64,000 bases of DNA from Chloroflexota bacterium (lineage in GTDB: Bacteria > Chloroflexota > Dehalococcoidia > Lucifugimonadales > UBA826), in NCBI GenBank assembly GCA_002722155.1, contig PBKS01000016.1, positions 1,391 to 65,390 of the forward strand. The letters run 5' to 3'. Positions 8,254 to 63,750 of this stretch are shown here, in pieces; within the stretch, counting starts at the first letter, position 1; each line of letters starts with the position of its first letter. Below the pieces are notes generated by a model. It did no database searches. It saw only the letters and a list, made by a program, of their open reading frames with translations, and had not been told where the DNA came from. The position numbers and the translations under genes were made by a program.

Positions 8254-9444
8254 ATGGCACAGACTAGGGAAGCTGCAATTGTTGGAATACATGAATATCC
8301 TCTGAGGGTAGCGCCAGGTGTCAGTGCCTTGCAAATCAAGGCCGCTTCCGCCTCTAAGGCGCTTGAAGATGCCGGACTATCTTGGCAGGACGTTGATGCG
8401 GTTTATGACAACGGGTCTCATCAGAACATAGGTGGACTCGGGATTTCGGAATACTTGGGTCTAAACCCACGGTTGATTGATAATACTAGCGTTGGTGGAA
8501 CTTCCTATGAGTTCCAGGCCCATCACGCGGCTACCATGATAGCTGCCGGCAAAGCGAATGTGGCTTTATTGACCTACGGATCAACGTCTCATTCTGATCG
8601 CAGGGCAATTGGCACCGCAGGGGCAACCGGTCAAGGTTCTCCCACTCCATTTAACAATATGGAGGATCCGTGGGGGATGACGTTGATATCAGGATACGGA
8701 ATGGTTAAGGCTCGCCATATGCATCAATACGGTACCACCAACGAACAATTTGCCGAGATCTCTGTGGCCACTCGCTATCATGCGATGAGGAATCCTGAGG
8801 CAGTTAAAGCAATGACGGATCTTGAGTTCGTAGGTGTTAATGAGATTACAACACAAGATGTTCTGGATTCTAGAATGATCGCTTGGCCTCTACATTTGCT
8901 TGAGTGCTGCATGGTTTCAGATGGTGGTGGGGCAGTAATCATAGCCTCTAAAGAAGTCGCGAGAAATTGTAAAAAACCACCAGTATGGATCATTGGCGGG
9001 GCGGAAGCTACAAAATATAGAGAAAATGGCGGTGATATAACTGTTAGCGCTGGTGGACAGTCTGGCCCTAGGGCTTTTGAGGATGCTGGGGTAACTCCAG
9101 ATGAAATAGATGTCCTTATGGCATACGATTCCTTTTCGATAACTGTCATGTGTATGATCGAAGATTTGGGATTTTGCAAAAAGGGGGAAGGTGGAGATTA
9201 TGTCAGTCAAGGAATACTGAAATTTGATCAAAAGGGAGGACCTGCTCTTAATACCGATGGTGGAGGCCTTTCCTCCAATCACCCAGGTGAAAGAGGTATT
9301 TTTCTATTGTTGGAAGCCGCCCGGCAGTTGAGAGGGGAGTCAAATTCCCAGGTGGAAAATGCCAAACTTGCTGTAGCGGTAGGCAACGGTGGCCAATTGG
9401 GAGCTAGGCACGCCACTTCGCCGACCATTCTTGCAGCCGACTAG
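8254..9444 (+). CDS. Thiolase-like protein (SCP-x/Ltp2-like, lacks nucleophilic Cys)
   Basis: VGGTS in place of CxS, YGTTNEQFA, DGGGAVII, YDSFS, NTDGGGLS, C-terminal VGNGG. Confidence 0.88.
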   Translation: MAQTREAAIVGIHEYPLRVAPGVSALQIKAASASKALEDAGLSWQDVDAVYDNGSHQNIGGLGISEYLGLNPRLIDNTSVGGTSYEFQAHHAATMIAAGKANVALLTYGSTSHSDRRAIGTAGATGQGSPTPFNNMEDPWGMTLISGYGMVKARHMHQYGTTNEQFAEISVATRYHAMRNPEAVKAMTDLEFVGVNEITTQDVLDSRMIAWPLHLLECCMVSDGGGAVIIASKEVARNCKKPPVWIIGGAEATKYRENGGDITVSAGGQSGPRAFEDAGVTPDEIDVLMAYDSFSITVMCMIEDLGFCKKGEGGDYVSQGILKFDQKGGPALNTDGGGLSSNHPGERGIFLLLEAARQLRGESNSQVENAKLAVAVGNGGQLGARHATSPTILAAD

Positions 9445-29574: not shown

Positions 29575-30864
29575 CTATACCATTAAGGAGGTAGGGCTTT
29601 GTAATAGGCGTTTTACTTCTATTAAAAATTGTGCCCCTTCAGCTCCATCTACGATTCTATGGTCAGCGGAAATAGTAGCCGTCATAACCTGGCCAACTGT
29701 TATTTCTCCGTCAACGACTATCGGTTTTTCCGATACAGTCCCCACCGCCAAAACTGCACTTTGAGGTGGATGTATTATGGCAACAAAGCTACTGACATCG
29801 AACATTCCCAGATTGCTAATTGCAAAAGTACCACCGGTATATTCTTGAGGGCTTAAGGTGCCGTTTGATGATCTTTCGGCTAAATCTTTGATCATCTGGG
29901 ATACTTGTCGCAGGGATTTTTCGCCGCAATCTAGAATGGCCGGCACGATCAATCCTTCTTCATCTGCTATTGCCACGGCAATATTTATTTCGTTGTTAAA
30001 CTGAATTCCATCATTTTCATAATAGGCGTTGAATTTGGGGTATTTCTGCAAGGTTTGAATGCATGCTTTAACAATTAGGTCATTTACTGTGAGTCTGATG
30101 CCATCATCTTTCAACTGGTCATTAATCTGTTTTCGAAGCGACATGGCATTCGTCATATTTATTTCAGCCGAAACGTAAAAATGAGGTTTTTCCGTTTTAC
30201 TTTTGACAGTCACTCTTGCTATTTGTTGACGCATTCTGCTAAGAGGTTGTTTCTCTCCTAGTGTGGATGGGATAGCTAGTGGTTCTACTTTAGAAGTAAC
30301 TGTTTCCTTAGAAATTTGCGGCTCGGATGGGATTGGTACGGTTGATTGGGAAGAGAGATTTGGTTCAAATTCTTCGACATCTTTTTTTGTGATTCTGCCA
30401 CCTGGCCCGGATCCTGATATGTTAGAAATGTTTATGCCAAGTTCCTCGGCAATGCGGCGTGCAATTGGTGTTGCTAATATTCGTCCCCCAGAAGGTGCAC
30501 TATTAACCTCCGCTGGTTCATGAAATTGTTCCGGCTCCTGGTCAATGGCAGGTTCTTCCGGACTAGAATTAATGGTGGTGGTTGTTTGTTCATCCAATAT
30601 ATTTGAACTGGTGTCCACCTCTTCTCCTGCGTTGCCAACTACAGCTATGGTCTGCCCTACAGGTACAATGGTTCCTTCAGGTGCTACTATTTTGAGTAGA
30701 ACCCCTTCAGAATCGGATTCAAATTCTACGACTGCTTTGTCAGTCTCTATTTCTGCAACTGGTTCGTTCTTGTTTACTGCTGCACCCTCATCTTTCAGCC
30801 AACGAACGACAGTTCCTTCTTCCATGTCGTATCCCATCTGGGGCATTTTTAATTCAGTGGCCAT
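29575..30864 (-). CDS. pdhC: Dihydrolipoamide acyltransferase (E2)
   Basis: Lipoyl domain IETDKA, E3-binding GSGPGGRITK, catalytic DHRIVDGA. Confidence 0.9.
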   Translation of the reverse strand: MATELKMPQMGYDMEEGTVVRWLKDEGAAVNKNEPVAEIETDKAVVEFESDSEGVLLKIVAPEGTIVPVGQTIAVVGNAGEEVDTSSNILDEQTTTTINSSPEEPAIDQEPEQFHEPAEVNSAPSGGRILATPIARRIAEELGINISNISGSGPGGRITKKDVEEFEPNLSSQSTVPIPSEPQISKETVTSKVEPLAIPSTLGEKQPLSRMRQQIARVTVKSKTEKPHFYVSAEINMTNAMSLRKQINDQLKDDGIRLTVNDLIVKACIQTLQKYPKFNAYYENDGIQFNNEINIAVAIADEEGLIVPAILDCGEKSLRQVSQMIKDLAERSSNGTLSPQEYTGGTFAISNLGMFDVSSFVAIIHPPQSAVLAVGTVSEKPIVVDGEITVGQVMTATISADHRIVDGAEGAQFLIEVKRLLQSPTSLMV

Positions 30865-30880
30865 TTATGACTCATCTCCA

Positions 30881-31858
30881 TTAAAGACCGAAGTTGTATT
30901 TAACTGATTTTACCACCCAGTCACTATTAGGTATCATCAATTGTTCTATATTTCTGGCATATGGTGCTGGTACATCTGGTCCGTTTATTCTTACAACTGG
31001 ACCATCCAAGTCGTCGAAGGCAGCCTCTTGTATGTCACTAGCAATCGTGCCTGAGAACCCCCCAGTTTTCCATGTTTCTTCAACCACAGCGACTCTGTTA
31101 GTCTTTTTGACCGATTCGATGACAGTGTCTAAATCTAGCGGTGAAAGACACCTTAAATCTATTACTTCTGATGATATGTTGTCTTCTTCGAGTTTGGCTG
31201 CCGCTTCTTCAGCTACCCTGACCATCCCGGAATATGCAACTAAAGTCACGTCATTTCCTGGCCTAGCTATTCTGGCTTTTCCTAAAGGAACTTCATAATA
31301 CTCTTCTGGTACTTCCCCTCTGACTCTGTATAACAGGGCATGTTCGGCAAAAATGACAGGATTGTTATCTTTACGACTTGCTCGGAACATTCCTAGAGCA
31401 TCATAAGGGGTTGCCGGTACCACGACTCGAAGTCCAGGCACTGAGGCATACCAGTTTTCAAAACTTTGAGAATGAGTAGCTGCAAGTTGACCGCCACCGC
31501 CAGTTACTGTCCTTATAATTAAGGGCACGGTTAATTGACCATTTGACATGTAACTTAGTTTTGCGGCGTGGTTTATTATCTGATCCATCGCCACCAGGGT
31601 GAAATTTATGGTCATCACTTCAACAATTGGTCTCATACCGATCATCGCTGACCCTACACCGGCTCCCACAAATACTGATTCTGAAATTGGAGTATCTCTA
31701 ACTCTTTCTTCGCCATATTTTTCCAAAAAGCCTCGGGTTACGGCGTAAGCTCCTCCGTAGGCTCCTATGTCTTCTCCCATAAGAAAGCATCGATTGTCTT
31801 CATCGAGTGCCTCACTAAGGGCTTTGGACACCGCTTCTCTCAATAGCATCTCCGCCAT
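30881..31858 (-). CDS. pdhB: Pyruvate dehydrogenase E1 beta subunit
   Basis: GEDIG, DTPISE, HSQS, EVIDLR. Start moved to ATG at 31858. Confidence 0.9.
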   Translation of the reverse strand: MAEMLLREAVSKALSEALDEDNRCFLMGEDIGAYGGAYAVTRGFLEKYGEERVRDTPISESVFVGAGVGSAMIGMRPIVEVMTINFTLVAMDQIINHAAKLSYMSNGQLTVPLIIRTVTGGGGQLAATHSQSFENWYASVPGLRVVVPATPYDALGMFRASRKDNNPVIFAEHALLYRVRGEVPEEYYEVPLGKARIARPGNDVTLVAYSGMVRVAEEAAAKLEEDNISSEVIDLRCLSPLDLDTVIESVKKTNRVAVVEETWKTGGFSGTIASDIQEAAFDDLDGPVVRINGPDVPAPYARNIEQLMIPNSDWVVKSVKYNFGL

Positions 31859-31859
31859 T

Positions 31860-32858
31860 CTAATTTCCCTCTGGATCCGCATAAATGTGAGTGTAAAGTT
31901 CTTCTGGAGCTGGTTCAGGGCTTTGTTCAGCAAATTCCCTTGCCTCTTGAACTATGAGGTCAACTTTTTCAGCGGCGAGTTCCAGATCCTGAGGTTCAAT
32001 TTTCCCCGCCTCGAGGCAATCTTCCCTAAACTTATCAATTGGGTCTCTGGACCTGTTTTCTTGAACTTCTTCATTATCCCTATAATTAGATGGATCTGCC
32101 ATAGAGTGTCCATGAAATCTGTACGCCATGGATTCTATGAAAACGGGGCCAGTACCTTCGCGAACTTTGGCGATACCCTCACTTACTGTTTCTTTTACAG
32201 CCATAACATCCATACCGTCTATCTGCACGGCTGGGATCATGTATGGCTCTGCAGCACCGTAGATGCTGGCACCACCGGCTCTGGACCGATTGACATCAGT
32301 ACCCATTCCGTAGAGGTTGTTTTCCAACATGAAGACAACGGGCAATTTCCACAAGGAGGCCATATTCATTGCTTCATGGAATTCGCCTTCATTAACCGCG
32401 CCATCTCCAAAAAAGCACATTACTACGCTATCAAGTTTCTTTAACTTCACGCCCAGTGCTATTCCTATAGCTAACGGAAGTTGACCGCCCACTATCGCGT
32501 GCCCGCCCATGAAGTGTTTCTCAGCATCAAACAGATGCATGGAGCCGCCCTTTCCACCACTACACCCTGTAGCTTTTCCACATAATTCTGCCATTGCCGC
32601 TTTGGGATCAACGCCTCTAGCTAGAGCGTGACCGTGGTCCCTATAGTGACCGATAACATAGTCATCATCCCGTAGATTTGGTATCGCCCCGACAGCTATA
32701 GCTTCTTCACCAATATAAGTATGGAGAAATCCTCGAACTAACCCCCTTCTGTACAGGCGTTCTGCCTCTTCTTCAAAACGTCTTATCAGAAGCATCTGGG
32801 TGAAAATTTCTAATGCCTCTTCTTTGGCGAGTGTTTCTATGTTTAAGGTAGTTGCCAC
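31860..32858 (-). CDS. pdhA: Pyruvate dehydrogenase E1 alpha subunit
   Basis: GFLHTYIGEEA, GKGGSMH, TPP motif GDGA...ENN, YRFHGHSMAD. Confidence 0.9.
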   Translation of the reverse strand: MATTLNIETLAKEEALEIFTQMLLIRRFEEEAERLYRRGLVRGFLHTYIGEEAIAVGAIPNLRDDDYVIGHYRDHGHALARGVDPKAAMAELCGKATGCSGGKGGSMHLFDAEKHFMGGHAIVGGQLPLAIGIALGVKLKKLDSVVMCFFGDGAVNEGEFHEAMNMASLWKLPVVFMLENNLYGMGTDVNRSRAGGASIYGAAEPYMIPAVQIDGMDVMAVKETVSEGIAKVREGTGPVFIESMAYRFHGHSMADPSNYRDNEEVQENRSRDPIDKFREDCLEAGKIEPQDLELAAEKVDLIVQEAREFAEQSPEPAPEELYTHIYADPEGN

Positions 32859-32870
32859 AATTAAGCTTCT

Positions 32871-34253
32871 TTATATATGGATGGCTTCACTGGTGGAATC
32901 CAGCGCCGCCTCTTTTAAAGTTTCTGAAATTGTTGGATGAGGGTGGATTAACCAACCAAGTTCCGTTGTGGTACCTTCTAGGAGTTTAGTCATTGATAGT
33001 TCCGCCAGTAGCTCTGTGACTTCTGACCCAATCATATGTGCGCCAAGTATCTCCCCGATTTCCGGGTCTGTGATCAGTTTCACCAATCCCTCTGTATGCC
33101 CCAACGCGATTGCTTTCCCACTGGCAGAAAAAGGGAATTTACCTATTTGGAATTCAACTCCTTCGTTAGTAGCTTGATCCTCGGTTATCCCAAAACTGGC
33201 AACTTGTGGCTCACAATATATTGCTTTGGGCATTAAACGATAATCAAGCGGAGCTGGATTTAAACCAGCTATGTACTCTACGGCAGTAACTGCCTGAGCT
33301 GAAGCCACATGAGCTAACAACATCTTTCCCGTTACATCCCCGATTGCATAAACACCCGTTACATTAGTTTCCATGTTGTCGCTGACCGAAACGAAGCCAT
33401 TTTCGGTGGTTACTCCGACATCTTCCAAACCTATCCCATCAGTGTTAGCTTGTACTCCGACGGCGACCAGTACCTTATCTGCAGAGATTACTTCTTCTGC
33501 GGCATTTTCCAGGATTTTGATGACGGCTGTTTTGTCTTGAATCTCTATTGAACTTACAGAAACTCCGGTTCTAATATTTATGCCTCTTGTCTGAAATGAT
33601 TTTGTGAGTATTTCACTAATTTCATGGTCTTCATTGGGGATTATCCTATCCAGCATTTCTACCATAGTTACATTTGCTCCGTAGCTTTTGTAAATATGTG
33701 CAAATTCTGCTCCAGTTGCACCTGCCCCTATTATGGCGATATCTTTCGGTACTTCTGTCATAGATAATGCGTCGCGACTATTGATCACTATTTCATGGTC
33801 AATCGGCATTGATTCAATGTGTCGCTGTCTCGCACCAGTAGCAATGATTATGTTTTCGGAAGTAATGGTTTGATTTGTTTCCACAATCTCTAGTTCGTGG
33901 GCAGCTATAAACTTCGCCGAGCCCTCGATTAGCGTTACTCCATTTTTGTTTAACAAATATTGCACGCCAGAGGTCAGCTTTCCTACTACCTCCCGACTAC
34001 GATTAATAGCTTTTGAAAAATCGTAGGTCAGATTGTCGAATGCAATACCGAATTCATCAGCATTATTAACCAAATTTAATACTTCAGCGTTCCTGAGCAG
34101 AGATTTACTGGGTATACATCCCCAATTGAGGCACACTCCTCCTACGGATTCTTTTTCTATTATTGCCGTGTTCAAGCCCAACTGGGCTGCTCGAATAGCA
34201 GCTACGTAACCTCCAGGGCCTGCACCTACAACAACTACATCAAAATCAGCCAA
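32871..34253 (-). CDS. lpdA: Dihydrolipoyl dehydrogenase (E3)
   Basis: GAGPGGY, GGVCLNWGCIPSK, HPHPTISE. Confidence 0.95.
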   Translation of the reverse strand: MADFDVVVVGAGPGGYVAAIRAAQLGLNTAIIEKESVGGVCLNWGCIPSKSLLRNAEVLNLVNNADEFGIAFDNLTYDFSKAINRSREVVGKLTSGVQYLLNKNGVTLIEGSAKFIAAHELEIVETNQTITSENIIIATGARQRHIESMPIDHEIVINSRDALSMTEVPKDIAIIGAGATGAEFAHIYKSYGANVTMVEMLDRIIPNEDHEISEILTKSFQTRGINIRTGVSVSSIEIQDKTAVIKILENAAEEVISADKVLVAVGVQANTDGIGLEDVGVTTENGFVSVSDNMETNVTGVYAIGDVTGKMLLAHVASAQAVTAVEYIAGLNPAPLDYRLMPKAIYCEPQVASFGITEDQATNEGVEFQIGKFPFSASGKAIALGHTEGLVKLITDPEIGEILGAHMIGSEVTELLAELSMTKLLEGTTTELGWLIHPHPTISETLKEAALDSTSEAIHI

Positions 34254-34494: not shown

Positions 34495-34567
<73 letters not shown>

Positions 34568-34616
34568 CACCTCTTGGGTTGGGATACTGTAGTTTTGTGG
34601 GTTATTGATTTAACTA

Positions 34617-34691
34617 GCGGAAGTGGCTCAGTGGTAGAGCATCTCCTTGCCAAGGAGAAGGTCGCGGGTTCGAATCCCGTCTTCCGCTCCA
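34617..34691 (+). tRNA. tRNA-Gly (GCC)
   Basis: Acceptor stem GCGGAAG/CTTCCGC, loop TTGCCAA, GGTTCGAATCC, ends TCCA. Confidence 0.96.
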
Positions 34692-34701
34692 TACACCGCA
34701 G

Positions 34702-35118
34702 CTATGCTTTTTGGAATATAACTAGTGTAACTTCCTCTGTTACTTCATCAAAAGCGACAAACACCGGCATATCCACATAGACATCTTCAGGTTTGCACCC
34801 TACTATTCCAGAAGGGATCTTTGGCCCTTCATCTAATTCTACAATCGCATATATGTGACCATGCGATGACTGAAAGGATGGATGAACCGATTGGCGAACA
34901 TGTGTGTATGAATACACCCTGCCGTTTCCAGACATTTTCTTCCATGTCAGGTCTTTAGAAAAGCAATTTGGGCAGACTTCCCTGGGATAGAAAAACAGGT
35001 TTGAACATGAGTTGCAGTACGGAATGATCAATTCTTTTCGTTTTGCGGCTTCCCAAAACGGCTTAGTTAATTGCTCATTAGCTGGTATAGGAATTGGTTT
35101 GTCATATGCTGAAGTCAT
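34702..35118 (-). CDS. DUF35 Zn-ribbon/OB-fold acyl-CoA-binding protein
   Basis: [34 protein letters not shown]. Confidence 0.88.
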
Positions 35119-35144
35119 CTCAAAGCCTCAGTTCTTGCTTTTGT

Positions 35145-36314
35145 CTAAAGTGTGTTCTCGGACCCGAGAACCAGCGAGCACATTTCACTCGCTGTGCCCC
35201 CTCAACCGTTCACCAGGCACAAATCACTTTTTTCTACTTGTCTTGAGCCCGCTTTTCCCATGATTTGCCGTGCCCCTTCGATAACGTGTCTAAACCCTCC
35301 TGCCAAGCCAGGCTGGCCTCCTGAGAGTTGACCCCCATCAGTATTTATTGGAAAAGTGCCTTTATATGTGGTGTCCGTTTCTTCATAAAAAGGACCAATT
35401 TCTCCTTTTTCTACCAAACCAGCATCTTCTATGCACATTGCCGCCAGTATTGTGTAACAGTCATAAAATTCTGCAAATTCTATGTCAGTAGGAGTATAGC
35501 CAGCCATTTCCAGCGCCCGTCTCACAGAATCCACAGCCGGGGTTTCCGTGAATTTATCTCTTTGCCAAATATTGGCTTCACCTTGCTTTAAACCTACTCC
35601 GAGTACATATGCAGGTTTGTTTTTCATGTTTTTGGCACGTTCCGGTGTAGTGATGATTAGAGCGGCTGCTCCATCGCAAGGCATCACGGATTCAAGTAAT
35701 TTTAGAGGTTCGTTTATATACCTTGAGTTTAATACGTCCTCTTTACTTATTGGTTGTCCGTTGAAAACAGCATTTTCGTTTTCCAATGCGTTATATCTTT
35801 GATCTGATGCCATTTTGGCTAGTTGTTCTTCTGTAGTGCCATATTCGTGAATATGTCTTCTATACATGAGACCATATCCGGTATTGGCCCCTGGAGCCAT
35901 TCCGTGGGGTTCTTCCCATTCGGATCTTACACTCGGACCAGGAGTTCCCCGCCCAGCTGCTCGTCCTGCTCTCTCGGCATCCTGTCGAGAATTACCCATC
36001 ACGACCAACACTGTGTTACATATCCCACTGCTGACCGCAGAAGTAGCTACCATAGTAGCGGTTGCGCCGCTGGCTCCTTGCATCGATACTCCAGTTGCGA
36101 AATTTGGTTTGATGTCAAGATATTCTGCTACCGCAGGAGGGAGTGCAACTCCGTCAGTGACCAGGCCGTCGATGTCCTCTTTGGAAATACCGGCATCGGC
36201 TATAGCTAATCCTGCCGCTTCGGCACACAAACCATACATACTTCGCCCTTCATGGATCCGCCTAGTTGGCACTTCTCCGATGCCGACGATGGCCCCTCTA
36301 CCTCTAAGGCTCAT
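35145..36314 (-). CDS. Thiolase-like protein with in-frame UGA at codon 371 (candidate selenoprotein, 389 aa by readthrough)
   Basis: Thiolase motifs YGTTEEQLA, DGAAALI, YDCY, NTDGGQLS. The ORF stops at CLVNG-TGA, but the frame continues GGTASEMCSLVLGSENTL-TAG, matching the paralog's VGNGG...TILAAD end. The thiolase call is about 0.9 confident; Sec decoding is inferred. Confidence 0.75.
35172..35201 (-). promoter_or_regulatory. Candidate bacterial SECIS element
   Basis: mRNA after the UGA reads GGGGGCA-CAGCGAG-UGAAAUGUG-CUCGCUG. This is a perfect 7-bp stem with a G at position 2 of the 9-nt loop region. Confidence 0.6.
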
Positions 36315-36424: not shown

Positions 36425-37267
36425 TTAGTCGGATGTGATTGCAGCGATGGCGACCAAGTTTGGACCGGCGTGTGTTCCAATAACTGGTCCAACCCTGGTT
36501 AGGAATGGAGACCGATTATCAGGAAGCAGATGTTCCACCGAGGTAGCCAAACTTTTGGCATCTAAGTCGTCAGTGCTATAAACAATCGCGATATCGTCCA
36601 ATTGTCCCAAATCCTGAACGGCTTGTTCTAATTTCATGAGCCCCATGTTTCTAGACCTTGCCTTGCTGAATTGACCTATTTCCCCATCTTCTACTCTTAA
36701 TATAGGCCGAATTTTTAAAAGACCACCTATGAGTGATCTGGCCTTACCAATTCTTCCTCCCTTCTCCAAATATTCCAATGTATCGAAAAGAGCGAAAAAA
36801 TTACTTCTTTTCGCGATTGATTCCGCAATGGAAATACATTCATCAACTGATTTACCTTCCTTGGCAGCTTTTGCAGCCCCGAGAGCTGATAGCCCTACAG
36901 TCATAGATACCTGCTGGGTATCCACAATTCGGACATCGACATTTCCTGATACTGTATTGGCTGCTTGTTGGGCGGAATTTATAGTTCCACTAAGTTTTGA
37001 GGATACATGGATCGATATAATCACATCATTTGGTTCGCTTATTTGATTGTAAATGTCAACGAACTCACCAATGGACGGTTGAGAAGTAGAAGGAAAAACC
37101 GTCCCATTGATGAGCTTGTCGAAAAACTCATCTGTGTTTAGATCTATCCCATCTTTAAAAACTTTTTCCCCAAAATGTACATTTAAAGGCACGACGGTTA
37201 TACCGAAATCATCAGCGAGGTTTGGATCTAGATCTGAAGTGCTGTCCGTGACTATTTTGATCGCCAT
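36425..37267 (-). CDS. DegV family fatty-acid-binding protein
   Basis: IVTDSTSDL, TSQPS, SSKLSGT, LEYLEKGGRIG, IGTHAGP. Start moved to ATG at 37267. Confidence 0.92.
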   Translation of the reverse strand: MAIKIVTDSTSDLDPNLADDFGITVVPLNVHFGEKVFKDGIDLNTDEFFDKLINGTVFPSTSQPSIGEFVDIYNQISEPNDVIISIHVSSKLSGTINSAQQAANTVSGNVDVRIVDTQQVSMTVGLSALGAAKAAKEGKSVDECISIAESIAKRSNFFALFDTLEYLEKGGRIGKARSLIGGLLKIRPILRVEDGEIGQFSKARSRNMGLMKLEQAVQDLGQLDDIAIVYSTDDLDAKSLATSVEHLLPDNRSPFLTRVGPVIGTHAGPNLVAIAAITSD

Positions 37268-37404
37268 ACGTAAATCTCCGTTAGAAATAATCGCCATTTT
37301 ACGATAAATCCCGAAAGTTTTTATTTTGTCTTACCAACATGAGAAAGTGTATGTATAATCGGGCAAAATATTTTATGGTATGTACCCTAATTGGAGATAA
37401 GTCT

Positions 37405-60239: not shown

Positions 60240-61675
60240 TGTCAAAACCAAATATATTGGTCATATTTACTGATGATCAGCGATTCGATACTGTTCATGC
60301 GTTAGGTAACGATAAAATATCGACTCCAAATATGGATTGGCTAGTTGAAAATGGTACCGCTCTAACCAACGCCTACATCATGGGTGGGACAAATACAGCT
60401 GTATGCATGCCTAGCAGAGCTATGTTGATGACTGGGCGAACACTTTTCCATCTTGTGGATTCTGGCGAGACCATACCCAAGGACCATGTTATGTTGGGAG
60501 AAACCCTTCGTAAATCTGGTTATCACTGTTGGGGTACCGGTAAATGGCATAACGGCACTGAATCGTACATTCGAAATTTCCAAGATGGTGCCGATATCTA
60601 TTTTGGTGGAGGATATGATCATTGGATGGTACCAGTGCATTCTTACGACCCATCTCAACAATATCTAGGTCGAATATCAAGAGATATGGTTCCTTTGCAT
60701 GAATATGAGCCGATAGAAACCTATAAAAGTCGGGTTCAATCATACCGAGTCCCTGCCTTACCGGAAGAAAAAATTGCTAATCATATCCATTCCGGGCGAC
60801 ATTCTACTAACCTATTTGCTGACCAAGCTGCGGAATTTATTTCTAACTACGAAAAAGATGATCCGTTTTTTGCGTATGTCGCTTTTATGGCCCCTCATGA
60901 CCCAAGGACTACCCCACAAAAATTTTACGATATGTATTCTGCAGATGACTTTGATATCGAAGAAAATTTTATGACTGAGCATCCTTTCGACAACGGTGAA
61001 CTTGATGCTAGAGACGAGCTTTTAGCTGCAGTTCCTAGGGAAGAATTAGAAGTAAAAAATCATATAGCAGAGTATTACGCTATGGTCTCTCATCTTGATT
61101 CGCAAGTAGGGTTGATTTTGGATGCTCTCAAAGAATCAAATCAAATTAGTAATACCATCATAGTGCTTGCTGGTGATAATGGACTTGCCTTAGGAAGACA
61201 TGGTCTTTTTGGTAAACAGAATCTTTATGATCACAGTATTCATATTCCCATGATATTTTGTGGCCCCGGAATTCCCAGCCAGACTTCGAGAGATTCATTA
61301 GTTTATACAGCCGATATATACCCTACCTTATGTGAAATGGCTGGCATTGAAATTCCGGAAAGCGTCTTAGGTAAAAGTATGATGAAGATCATAAAAGAAA
61401 AAGAAATTTCAACCCGCGACTATTTGTACTATGTTTATAAGGATGTTCAAAGAGCAGTAACGTATCAGGGTTGGAAATTGATCGAATACAACGTAAATGG
61501 AGTTCGATCCACCCAATTATTCAACATTTCTGAAGATCCAGACGAGATACATGATCTATCGGGAGACGCTGGCTTTATAGAAAGAGTGGTTGAACTGAGG
61601 AGGAAAATGCAGGAGGCTCGTGAGGCGTATGGAGATAATTTGGCCCCTTTTGAAAAATTTTGGGAAGGATTCTAA
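60239..61675 (+). CDS. Sulfatase (choline/aryl-sulfatase-like)
   Basis: PNILVIFTDDQR, CMPSR, GKWH, APHDP, GDNG, HGLFGKQNLY. Confidence 0.9.
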   Translation: MSKPNILVIFTDDQRFDTVHALGNDKISTPNMDWLVENGTALTNAYIMGGTNTAVCMPSRAMLMTGRTLFHLVDSGETIPKDHVMLGETLRKSGYHCWGTGKWHNGTESYIRNFQDGADIYFGGGYDHWMVPVHSYDPSQQYLGRISRDMVPLHEYEPIETYKSRVQSYRVPALPEEKIANHIHSGRHSTNLFADQAAEFISNYEKDDPFFAYVAFMAPHDPRTTPQKFYDMYSADDFDIEENFMTEHPFDNGELDARDELLAAVPREELEVKNHIAEYYAMVSHLDSQVGLILDALKESNQISNTIIVLAGDNGLALGRHGLFGKQNLYDHSIHIPMIFCGPGIPSQTSRDSLVYTADIYPTLCEMAGIEIPESVLGKSMMKIIKEKEISTRDYLYYVYKDVQRAVTYQGWKLIEYNVNGVRSTQLFNISEDPDEIHDLSGDAGFIERVVELRRKMQEAREAYGDNLAPFEKFWEGF

Positions 61676-61683
61676 ATATTTAC

Positions 61684-62118
61684 CTAAGGATTTCTCCAAA
61701 TTTGGCCCCGTTCCCTAACTTTTTCCAACAATTTGAAGTTGTTTCCTTGTTCCAAGTTATACCCTTTTGGTTGAGGGGGGTGACCTGTCATTCCGATTGC
61801 TCTGACGACTATAGGGTTCGTGTAGTATCCGTTATAGGTATGGCGAATAAGTTCGGCAAAAAAAAGGCTGTTGGAACATTCATATTTTTGTAGTAAGTCA
61901 ATTTGTTCTTTCTCTTGGAGTGACAAAAAATCTTTGTCGTTGATATCCCTGAGACCTTCCACAAACAATCTCATCAATTGGGGGGCATCAGAAATTGTAT
62001 CGTCAATGTGTTCCACAACGTTAATATCGGAAGGTGAAGGAAGGCTACCTTTTTTTGGTATTAAAAGGTCTACTATGACAGTTAAAGTGTCTGAATTGCT
62101 TTTAGATAATGTTCTCAT
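61684..62118 (-). CDS. Gluconate 2-dehydrogenase subunit 3-like protein
   Basis: DLLIP...LPS, FFAELIRHTYNGYYTNP; follows the GMC gene. Confidence 0.7.
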   Translation of the reverse strand: MRTLSKSNSDTLTVIVDLLIPKKGSLPSPSDINVVEHIDDTISDAPQLMRLFVEGLRDINDKDFLSLQEKEQIDLLQKYECSNSLFFAELIRHTYNGYYTNPIVVRAIGMTGHPPQPKGYNLEQGNNFKLLEKVRERGQIWRNP

Positions 62119-62157
62119 GAGAATATTCCCAATTTAGTTCTGATTCCCAGGTAGGGG

Positions 62158-63750
62158 TCATTTTGATTTTGAGATGACATGATCTGCAACATGCAATGCT
62201 AAGGCCTGAATGGTTGAGGTTGGATTAACCGCTCCGGCTGTGACGAATATGCTTCCGTCTATAACGAATAGATTATCTACATCATGAGTTTGACCATACT
62301 TATTTACGACCGAATCCTTTGGATCGGCACCCATTTTTGTGGTGCCCATCAGGTGCCATCCAGCTTCTCTTTTTAGGGGATCATGTGTAACTTCTGTTGC
62401 ACCTGCTGCTTTCATAACTTGAGTTGCTGTTTTCACCCCGTGTCCCAACATTTTGCGACTATTATCACTTAGTCGGTATTCAATTTTTGGGGATGGGATA
62501 CCGAATGAGTCAGAAAGATTTGGATCTATAGTTACTTTATTATGTGTTTCTGGTAGGTCTTCTCCTATCACAGCGAATGTAATAGTTCGGTTAAATCGTT
62601 TTTTGAAAGCTTCGTGGTGTTTTTCACCCCAAGGTACGTGACCACTGAGAGCCGTTGCTAAAGGTGCAGAAGAACGTACCACTTGATATGCATATCCCCT
62701 CACGAAATCTCTAGAATGGTCTGTCTCATAAAATTCTGAGCATATTATATTTAATGGTGTCGGACCTTTGTGTCCTTCTAAATCTTCGTCAAATATACCG
62801 GTCACAATAGAGTAAGGATGAAACATCAAATTTTTTCCGACAAGACCGCTTGAATTCGCTAAACCTTCAGGAAATTTGGTTGAGGTTGAATTCAGCAGAA
62901 TTCGAGGGGTTCCAATACCATTTGCCGCTAACACAATGGTTGAAGCATATTGCTCTTGGATATTGCCATCGGAGTCATAGTATATTGCGCTTTTTGCTTT
63001 ACCATACCTATCCACGGTGATTTCCCTAACTCGAGCGTTGGTGACTAATCGTGCACCTAGCTTAATCGCTTTGGGCCAATAGGTAACATCCGTACTCGAT
63101 TTGGCTTTTATAGAGCATCCCAGATCACAGGGTCCGCAATTGTTACAGCCTGGCCGCCCATCGTAATCCACAGTATTTATTGCTGAATCGGAAGGCCACC
63201 AATGCCAACCTAATTTGTCGAATCCATGGGTTATTTTATCCCCCAATTTGCCTAGCCCTACAGGAGGGGTTTGCCTTGGCGATTTAGGCGGGTATGCAGG
63301 ATCACCAATGATACCTGCTACTCCCATCATCTTGTCATTCAAATCAAAATACGGTTCAAGTTCAAAGTATGAAATAGGCCAATCATCGGCGACATGATCT
63401 AGAGTTTTGACCCTGAAATCAGACGGTTTTAATCGAGGGAAGTGAGCAGACCAATGAATGGTGCTACCCCCTACCGCGTTGTACATTAATGGTGCTATGG
63501 GGCTTTCGGTATCGTTAATCGGATAATCTACCTTCATAGATCTAAAATTAGGATTAGGATTAAAGTCCGTTTGTCTGTGTATTTCCCAATCAGAATTTGA
63601 AGTTGAATAGTCAGTTAATGGGTCTAACCAATCACCTTGTTCCAGACACATCACCTTGATTCCAGAGTTTGCTAATTTCCAAGAGAATGCCGCACCCGAG
63701 GCCCCTGCCCCTATTACCAGAACGTCTACCTTATTATTTACAATGTCCAA
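62158..63750 (-). CDS. GMC family flavoprotein oxidoreductase
   Basis: GAGASG, VGGSTIHW, CNNCGPCDLGC, HLMGTTKMG, NPTSTIQALA. Confidence 0.92.
   Translation of the reverse strand: MDIVNNKVDVLVIGAGASGAAFSWKLANSGIKVMCLEQGDWLDPLTDYSTSNSDWEIHRQTDFNPNPNFRSMKVDYPINDTESPIAPLMYNAVGGSTIHWSAHFPRLKPSDFRVKTLDHVADDWPISYFELEPYFDLNDKMMGVAGIIGDPAYPPKSPRQTPPVGLGKLGDKITHGFDKLGWHWWPSDSAINTVDYDGRPGCNNCGPCDLGCSIKAKSSTDVTYWPKAIKLGARLVTNARVREITVDRYGKAKSAIYYDSDGNIQEQYASTIVLAANGIGTPRILLNSTSTKFPEGLANSSGLVGKNLMFHPYSIVTGIFDEDLEGHKGPTPLNIICSEFYETDHSRDFVRGYAYQVVRSSAPLATALSGHVPWGEKHHEAFKKRFNRTITFAVIGEDLPETHNKVTIDPNLSDSFGIPSPKIEYRLSDNSRKMLGHGVKTATQVMKAAGATEVTHDPLKREAGWHLMGTTKMGADPKDSVVNKYGQTHDVDNLFVIDGSIFVTAGAVNPTSTIQALALHVADHVISKSK

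Follow-up and report, generated by a model that had tools for sequence, protein, structure and literature searches.

Does the gene considered here end at its in-frame TGA, or is that TGA read as selenocysteine (Sec)? The question is raised by a thiolase-like gene on the reverse strand of contig PBKS01000016.1 from a Chloroflexota bacterium of the class Dehalococcoidia (assembly GCA_002722155.1), within the 64,000-nucleotide (nt) stretch of DNA that was analysed and is here called the window. The open reading frame (ORF) at 35202..36314 (-) encodes 370 amino acids (aa) with the C-terminal end ...QVEKSDLCLVNG (CLVNG) and then meets TGA at 35204-35202. Past the TGA the same frame reads GGTASEMCSLVLGSENTL up to a TAG at 35147-35145, which gives 389 aa in total, and a gene for a DUF35 protein begins 26 nt past that TAG. 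A preliminary description of the locus had claimed this 370-aa ORF, its readthrough to 389 aa and the remaining 26-nt gap to the DUF35 gene at 34702-35118 (-), all of which we confirm. The best explanation, to which we assign a probability of roughly 0.85, is a 389-aa selenoprotein of the Sal/SLP aldolase type whose Sec is inserted with guidance from a selenocysteine insertion sequence (SECIS); the selenoprotein interpretation taken by itself is supported, by sequence comparison, at about 0.85-0.9, and each check proposed in the preliminary description and run here favoured it. Recoding signals, conservation, fold and motif identities were all established in silico, and the elements concerned are the following.

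35148..36314, minus strand: coding sequence (CDS) of the putative selenoprotein, 389 aa, thiolase fold, Sal/SLP-like (readthrough, Pfam, orthologs, AlphaFold2 (AF2) model, Foldseek)
35202..35204, minus strand: UGA predicted to be read as Sec, residue 371, in V-N-G-U-G-G (orthologs and contigs)
35172..35194, minus strand: hairpin 1, the one in the preliminary description, 8-bp stem, loop GAAAUGU (folding, ortholog comparison)
35154..35171, minus strand: hairpin 2, SECIS candidate for the whole clade, with a 7-bp stem and the loop GGUC at 35164-35161 (core conservation)
35457..35465, minus strand: codons Tyr284-Asp285-Cys286 of the YDCY motif (alignment to CtSal)
36075..36077, minus strand: Gly80, where thiolases have their nucleophile Cys (CxS) (hhalign with the genome's own thiolase; alignment to CtSal Gly89)
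34702..35118, minus strand: putative DUF35 partner gene, 138 aa, Cys4 zinc ribbon and OB fold (Pfam PF12172 and PF01796, the domains zf-ChsH2 and OB_ChsH2_C)

Of the 49 ORFs in the window that reach 200 aa, 9 have TGA as their stop; since TGA is otherwise an ordinary stop, recoding at this gene would be local, with no change of the genetic code, and a genome-wide reassignment of TGA was rejected. The argument for local recoding comes from relatives. When 61 related genomes were searched with the read-through protein, 27 of the 28 matches at 53% identity or more carried one or two in-frame TGA codons, the 28th being cut by a contig end at residue 336, and no match at 39% identity or less carried any. 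All 24 orthologs whose matches extend over the C-terminus had the TGA exactly at N-G-[TGA]-G-G, followed by 18 more codons to a TAA or TAG, and similarity ended directly after that stop; two orthologs of only 57-58% identity read GGQMSDMCTLVLGSENTL and GGTGSVMVTLVLGSENAL. A wider sample took in 401 genomes of the class Dehalococcoidia at a match threshold of E ≤ 1e-95, which 66 of them passed, some with at least four copies. By hand count, 122 of 149 among the matches listed contained a TGA, and among the fetched loci of the class 56 genes had it at column 371 (U371 genes, numbered by the window protein).

Judged by their substitutions, the 18 codons after the TGA evolve as coding sequence. 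All four Gly codons (GGG, GGA, GGT and GGC) are used directly after the UGA among orthologs, alternative codons of the tail divide into 26 synonymous and 13 non-synonymous, and the two other frames of the tail contain stops in some orthologs. Homologs with Asn, Ser or Cys at column 371 carry on with the same tail. The conservation of both TGA and downstream coding sequence, which the preliminary description had proposed to examine in relatives, thus holds for the 24 orthologs and for the 56 genes of the class. In an AF2 model made with 24 family members (mean predicted local distance difference test score, pLDDT, 86.4; predicted TM-score 0.89), the last beta-strand is formed by residues 377-384, past the UGA, with pLDDT 85-97 there, and a stop at the UGA would, as had been claimed, remove it.

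The codon itself is also found in material assembled independently. DNA contig X11, from a study that carries no flag as a possible source, covers 34663-35706 with 0 differences, and three RNA-library contigs bridge the TGA unchanged, namely X15 (35095-35571, 0 differences), X16 (34898-35227) and X17 (35136-35507). The last three come from three metatranscriptome libraries of two studies, and such contigs show presence and not proven transcription. No variant was reported at 35202-35204 in the DNA or RNA-library contigs, the site at which a sequencing fault had been considered earlier. Contigs of relatives from three metatranscriptome runs match only 35144-35216, the 73 nt from TGA to stop, with 5-7 differences, and are divergent on both sides; this is the most nucleotide-conserved part of the gene, as would fit a double constraint of coding and RNA structure. 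In one ortholog (L051:1501-2661 (+)) the true stop, 18 codons after the Sec-TGA, is also a TGA, and two UGAs of one mRNA would there be read differently by context.

A bacterial Sec codon calls for a signal in the RNA, and two hairpins follow the UGA. Hairpin 1 begins 7 nt past it, and the 71-nt stretch folds at -25 kcal/mol (z = -2.4, 3 of 200 shuffles as good). This hairpin persists across this family of genera, where one pair has changed in compensation from C-G to G-C, and is shifted or replaced in distant orthologs. The hairpin that the preliminary description had seen after the UGA is thus real and starts where stated, but is lineage-specific, and the clade-wide one is the next downstream. 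The loop of hairpin 2 starts 37 nt after the UGA, and its core, CUCGG[G/U]UC[C/U]GAG, occupies the same position in 54 of the 56 U371 genes, in 3 of 20 genes with Asn at that column (N371; all three are tandem paralogs nested in the Sec clade) and in none of 5 H/T genes. Directly flanking the core is a base pair that reads C-G in 28 genes, U-A in 22 and U-G in 4, and never a mismatch; the core 12-mer occurs a single time in the whole genome. GGUC is also the apical loop of the Escherichia coli fdhF SECIS. The bacterial SECIS (bSECIS) model, as given in a recent review (PMC13188914), allows a loop of 3-9 nt beginning with G and then G or U, a stem of 4-16 bp and a distance from UGA to loop of 16-37 nt. 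Hairpin 2, with its 7-bp stem, GGUC loop and spacing of 37 nt, lies within these published limits and is our clade-wide SECIS candidate for guiding Sec insertion.

Some of the genes carry a further in-frame TGA, at column 286. A G+C-rich hairpin with the loop CGUGU lies 17 nt past that TGA and is absent from Cys286 versions, and the same genes show accompanying Met-to-Val and Ile-to-Leu changes, which fit a SECIS imposed on coding sequence. Minimum free energies were -16.5 for U371 (n=40) vs -12.7 for N371 (n=20) and -12.0 for U286 (n=15) vs -9.7 for C286 (n=55), differences in the expected direction that are weak and confounded by relatedness and G+C content. An Rfam scan of the site returned no family, only a chance match to engA (E 4.9).

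The source genome (1.65 Mb, 86% complete) also contains the machinery for decoding such a codon. Its tRNA-Sec scored 64.2 bits (Rfam cut-off 47) and was called by ARAGORN as tRNA-SeC with the anticodon TCA, and the profile search gave 452 bits for SelA, 332 for SelB and 390 for SelD, so that selA, selB, selC and selD, which the preliminary description had wished to see looked for, are all present. The SelD gene (L012:1390-2448 (-), contig C25) has an in-frame TGA of its own at ...CAG-U-ASK..., by which the SelD of this genome is itself a predicted selenoprotein. In 22 of the 24 genomes with the TGA form selA was above cut-off, the other two genomes being 86-87% complete; co-occurrence did not discriminate, as selA was above cut-off in 55 of the 61 related genomes, with the TGA form or not. 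On contig C6 the only canonical thiolase of the genome (CxS, NEAF, GHP, CxG) stands back to back with selB, and a further Sec-less thiolase-like paralog lies 1.8 kb past selB (genes at 61128-62288 (-), 62449-64299 (+) and 66101-67228 (+); L100, L016 and L102). The adjacency of canonical thiolase and selB may be coincidence.

What kind of enzyme would carry this Sec? Pfam recognised Thiolase_C_1 only. The best solved relative is 9MYR (9myr_A; E 4e-77 by sequence; Foldseek TM 0.88, 36% identity), the Sal-Shy(DUF35) aldolase (CtSal) of Comamonas testosteroni, a retro-aldolase of bile-acid side chains, followed by the Sphaerobacter 'thiolase' 4U4E and the Ltp2-ChsH2(DUF35) aldolase. These matches identify the protein, at the level of sequence and fold, as a Sal/SLP-like aldolase scaffold that lacks the nucleophile Cys and is not a true thiolase. 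The earlier view of a Cys-less SCP-x/Ltp2-type protein paired with DUF35 was therefore apt, given Gly80 at the nucleophile site and Sal and Ltp2 aldolases as the top folds. A second thiolase-like gene in the window, at 8254-9444 (+), encodes 396 aa ending ...AVGNGGQLGARHATSPTILAAD and is 38% identical; it has no Sec, reads ...AVGNGGQLG... at the same place, where Asn occupies the Sec column (V-G-N-G-G), and likewise lacks the nucleophile Cys. The genome contains four such thiolase-like genes altogether.

The published account of CtSal describes Tyr302 as base and Cys304 as acid of a Y-D-C-Y motif, with C304A, C304S and C304H inactive, Gly89 at the thiolase nucleophile site, Gln347 and Gln352 as residues that may stabilise the thiolate, and an oxyanion hole made of the Gly391 backbone NH and the Gln161 side chain; its authors note the high intrinsic pKa of the Tyr/Cys dyad (PMC12329534). 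In the window protein Y284-D-C286-Y aligns to Y302-D-C304-Y and Gly80 to Gly89, with Y284, D285 and Gly80 invariant in the family alignment; Q329 and Q334 are the equivalents of Gln347 and Gln352 (GGQ...GQP), G372-G373 form the oxyanion loop, and a DUF35 zinc-ribbon/OB protein is the putative partner here too. In 75 of 79 related genes the next gene downstream codes for DUF35. Sec had been proposed as the only reactive residue, which does not hold, since the Tyr/Cys dyad of YDCY, catalytic in CtSal, is kept. The two systems differ in that CtSal has Thr389, two residues before Gly391, where the window protein has Sec371, in that DUF35 is here a free 138-aa protein and in CtSal the tail of a MaoC hydratase, and in the host, which here is a marine bacterium with a small genome.

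Other relatives are further off. TcLtp2-ChsH2DUF35 (6OK1) shares the thiolase fold without nucleophile Cys and, putatively, a DUF35 partner, and its chemistry is retro-aldol; it has YDHF and Tyr344, whereas the window protein has YDCY and a residue other than Tyr at the Tyr344 column. A classical thiolase, the genome's own P0123, shares the fold and a chalcogen residue in the Cb4-Cb5 loop followed by G-G (U-G-G vs C-x-G), but its CxS is here G-A-S, its NEAF is YDCY and its GHP is GQP; the hhalign comparison with P0123 spans residues 24-343 only, at a probability of 4%, and does not reach the Sec loop. The SCP2-thiolases and TbSLP (3ZBG, 5AB4) are fold neighbours of the window protein, and we know of none with Sec or with a chalcogen residue in both loops. 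SCP2-thiolases, unlike the window protein, keep the nucleophile Cys. Their xDCx-loop Cys is described as the acid/base in place of the CxG Cys (PMC7682436).

Sequence alignment places Sec371 in the Cb4-Cb5 loop. In the structure-based alignment of the MsTLP1 paper (PMC3406046) the thiolase CXG (378-380) corresponds to an NGG motif, the non-Sec sisters of the window protein have N-G-G at 371-373, and T-G-G of CtSal ends with the oxyanion Gly. Taken together, the three comparisons suggest an equivalence of U-G-G and C-x-G, with Sec at the place of the classical catalytic base. Sec371 would also lie close to Cys286.

Column 286 is Cys in 40 of the 56 U371 genes and Sec (TGA) in 16. Among 167 homologs drawn from a 5.8-billion-protein collection, 131 end before column 371 (...VNG) and 19 before column 286 (...YD), 12 are full-length and 5 fragments; of 129 shortened database forms, 128 have Cys286. 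The 12 full-length homologs have Asn (9), Ser (1) or Cys (2) at column 371, so the Cys homologs looked for at the Sec column exist, though only as two of the twelve. Both Cys371 proteins (P0122 and P0124, 68% identical mutually) have Gly286 (YDGY), a pattern that points to interchangeable columns and suggests, by analogy with the CxG and HDCF cysteines, that either can deliver the same catalytic thiol. The CxG cysteine of classical thiolases and the HDCF cysteine of SCP2 thiolases are described as serving the same active-site spot (PMC7682436). Three full-length relatives (P0059, P0094 and P0104) have Ala or Pro at 286 and Asn at 371, and no candidate catalytic chalcogen. Tandem arrays (L104:8076-11557 in genome G208; L080-L082) run in the order U286/U371 gene, DUF35, A286/N371 gene, DUF35; their second copy has lost both reactive residues and kept a relic of the GGUC hairpin, as if recently derived from the Sec gene, and may be a non-catalytic partner subunit. 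The FastTree tree is one without support values and its non-Sec forms were taken from database matches, and the order of gains and losses is not readable from it.

As a mechanism we infer the following, for the insertion of Sec as well as for the reaction and for what the Sec does in it. SelB and tRNA-Sec would decode the UGA of codon 371, guided by the GGUC stem-loop in the last 50 nt of the CDS, and translation past the UGA would add the final beta-strand. The enzyme would work with the small DUF35 protein encoded just downstream and, most likely, cleave the C-C bond of a beta-hydroxyacyl-coenzyme A (CoA) by a retro-aldol reaction. As in CtSal, Tyr284 would act as base on the beta-hydroxyl and Cys/Sec286 as proton donor to the acyl-CoA enolate. 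Sec371, by these comparisons an added or second reactive residue beside the Tyr/Cys dyad, would, as a low-pKa selenolate, serve as general base/acid, priming the Tyr/Cys relay and withstanding inactivation by oxidation. This is the role for Sec that we prefer, at somewhat short of even odds among those considered.

It also should be considered that Sec371 may be a covalent nucleophile, with Cys286 as acid/base, the enzyme then performing thiolase chemistry through an acyl-selenoester cleaved by CoA on a scaffold without Cys89, a reading near to that of the preliminary description. A thiolase requires a pair of cysteines, and a pair of chalcogen residues would be available here: all 56 U371 genes have C or U at column 286, and 128 of the 129 shortened database forms have C. 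Sec surpasses Cys both as nucleophile and as leaving group, and here it would sit beside the backbone NH groups of Gly80 and Gly373, which could hold the acyl oxygen; in classical thiolases the oxyanion hole is the Gly380 NH. However, the His of GHP and the Asn of NEAF are absent (GQP, YDCY), relatives with N371 and C286 are common, so that the fold works without a nucleophile at residue 371, and the Gly286 of the Cys371 forms points to two sites that are interchangeable and not complementary. We consider nucleophilic Sec unlikely on this balance.

Quite unlikely, too, is that Sec371 and Cys/Sec286 form a reversible selenenylsulfide or diselenide, whether as a redox switch, as protection from oxidation or in a redox reaction. 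Both columns toggle between Cys and Sec as redox motifs do, and the host lives in seawater, to go by the marine metagenome runs; most known selenoproteins are described as redox-active (PMC13188914), and the HDCF-type and CxG-type cysteines as serving the same active-site spot (PMC7682436). Set against this, no thioredoxin-like or reductase partner adjoins the gene, here or in G208, and the chemistry of CtSal proceeds without a redox step. A broader proposal, which we regard as doubtful, is that Sec371 with Cys/Sec286 gives chemistry new to the thiolase superfamily and with it a selenium-dependent step in carbon turnover that would be peculiar to marine Dehalococcoidia (SAR202-type); one possibility within it is a selenolate nucleophile, or an Se-S or Se-Se couple, that breaks or rearranges a bond next to the acyl-CoA thioester.

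Several observations weigh against a selenoprotein of the aldolase type. Nine ORFs of 200 aa or more in the window end with TGA, and two of them, this gene included, stay open past it for at least 18 codons; the open frame alone is within chance, and the selenoprotein reading is lifted above it by comparative evidence. At 37 nt, the loop of hairpin 2 is as far from the UGA as the bSECIS model allows, and hairpin 1, with a spacing of 15-16 nt, has a loop that begins G-A instead of G-G/U. Covariation is modest, with two pairs showing double changes among sequences that are related. The 57 nt after the SelD TGA are no more stable than shuffled sequence (z = +0.7), which leaves the hairpin call without the backing of a lineage-specific SECIS template. 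Readthrough of the UGA by another tRNA may also be compatible with the sequence. The preliminary description had placed Sec in the C-terminal loop that carries the canonical catalytic Cys; the loop is the same, but the column is uncertain, as three alignments put Sec opposite Cys378, Ile379 or Gly380 of classical thiolases, the HMMER one among them opposite the Ile of N-I-G-G, which leaves Sec371 at, or within two residues of, the classical CxG Cys. The oxyanion Gln161 of CtSal is Ala143 here, the Gly being kept (G373). Cys at column 371 is rare (the 2 of 12 above), the usual substitute being Asn, and no Cys371 form was among the 42 candidates of a search with the C-terminal 52 residues. Such rarity of Cys at a Sec column is atypical of selenoproteins. 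Neighbouring genes give no hint of a substrate, here or in G208, where the thiolase-like/DUF35 pairs stand among unrelated genes.

Could the TGA then be a true stop at Gly370, with the downstream sequence an RNA element (a terminator or a device coupling the DUF35 gene) or a decaying tail? Gene callers do end there in 131 of the 167 database entries, two stable hairpins occupy the stretch, and such an open frame arises by chance in the two of nine cases just given. Even so, the tail's substitutions are codon-like, homologs with a sense codon continue with a homologous peptide, and the tail forms the last strand of the fold in the model. The TGA is kept across genes only 57% identical, in 16 genes the codon of the catalytic Cys is itself a second TGA, and termination at it would cost the protein 100 residues, and Sec machinery is present in the genome. 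We judge a true stop very improbable. A fault of assembly or sequencing, or a pseudogene made by a recent nonsense mutation, has only the bare TGA in its favour and was refuted by the same codon in 24 genomes and 56 genes and in contigs from independent DNA and RNA libraries.

Around the locus, a DegV gene (36425-37297) lies upstream, and downstream there is a four-gene 2-oxoacid dehydrogenase operon (E3, E1 alpha, E1 beta, E2; 29575-34253 (-)), with tRNA-Phe and tRNA-Gly (34495-34691 (+)) between it and the DUF35 gene. No steroid-catabolism genes, such as would be the context of a Sal-type enzyme acting on steroid side chains, were found near the locus in the window, and the G208 neighbours are likewise uninformative.

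Is such a selenoprotein already known? A May 2026 review counts 119 families and subfamilies of prokaryotic selenoproteins, and neither its Table 1 nor its text has a thiolase-fold entry (PMC13188914). No such term occurs in the main texts of the papers on GOS, deep-Sep and BSepDB, whose supplementary lists could hold a thiolase entry; BSepDB, by its own description, covered previously reported families only, and it credits Dehalococcoidia with 46-49 selenoprotein genes. A comparison with NCBIfam 20.0 gave nothing beyond generic models of thiolase subfamilies, none of which reached its cut-off, and no model for a selenoprotein, and a full-text literature search on Sec or selenoproteins together with thiolases, DUF35 or SAR202/Dehalococcoidia found nothing relevant. 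The remark in the preliminary description that thiolases are not known among the classical bacterial selenoprotein families thus agrees with the 119-family catalogue and the literature search. Like catalogued selenoproteins, this one has a UGA in frame and, shortly downstream of it and still within the CDS, a hairpin, in a selenoprotein-rich lineage. The catalogued families are described as mostly redox proteins with CxxU or UxxC motifs and many Cys homologs (PMC13188914), whereas here the usual non-Sec residue is Asn. In all probability we are dealing with a new selenoprotein family on a known scaffold, made via the known bacterial Sec-insertion system; it is unusual in its enzyme class, in having two Sec positions within a single active site and in the all but complete lack of Cys counterparts at the main one.

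The homologs in the protein collection, from Dehalococcoidia, Chloroflexota and the SAR202 cluster, bear the source names 'thiolase family protein' or 'acetyl-CoA acetyltransferase', and well over a hundred public entries are cut at residue 370 or 285, leaving the annotations shortened. Gene counts and metabolic models of marine Dehalococcoidia would consequently be wrong for this thiolase-like family. With a main Sec site almost without Cys counterpart, searches based on Cys/TGA pairs would tend to miss the family, which indicates a blind spot of selenoproteome surveys for Cys-less Sec sites. The occurrence of U, C, N and S at one site provides a natural experiment on Sec against an acid/base or nucleophilic Cys. 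If the reading is true, this would be the first selenoprotein of the thiolase superfamily, with Sec serving C-C bond and acyl-CoA chemistry and not thiol-redox chemistry, and it would link the selenium supply of the ocean to the acyl-CoA metabolism of an abundant heterotroph.

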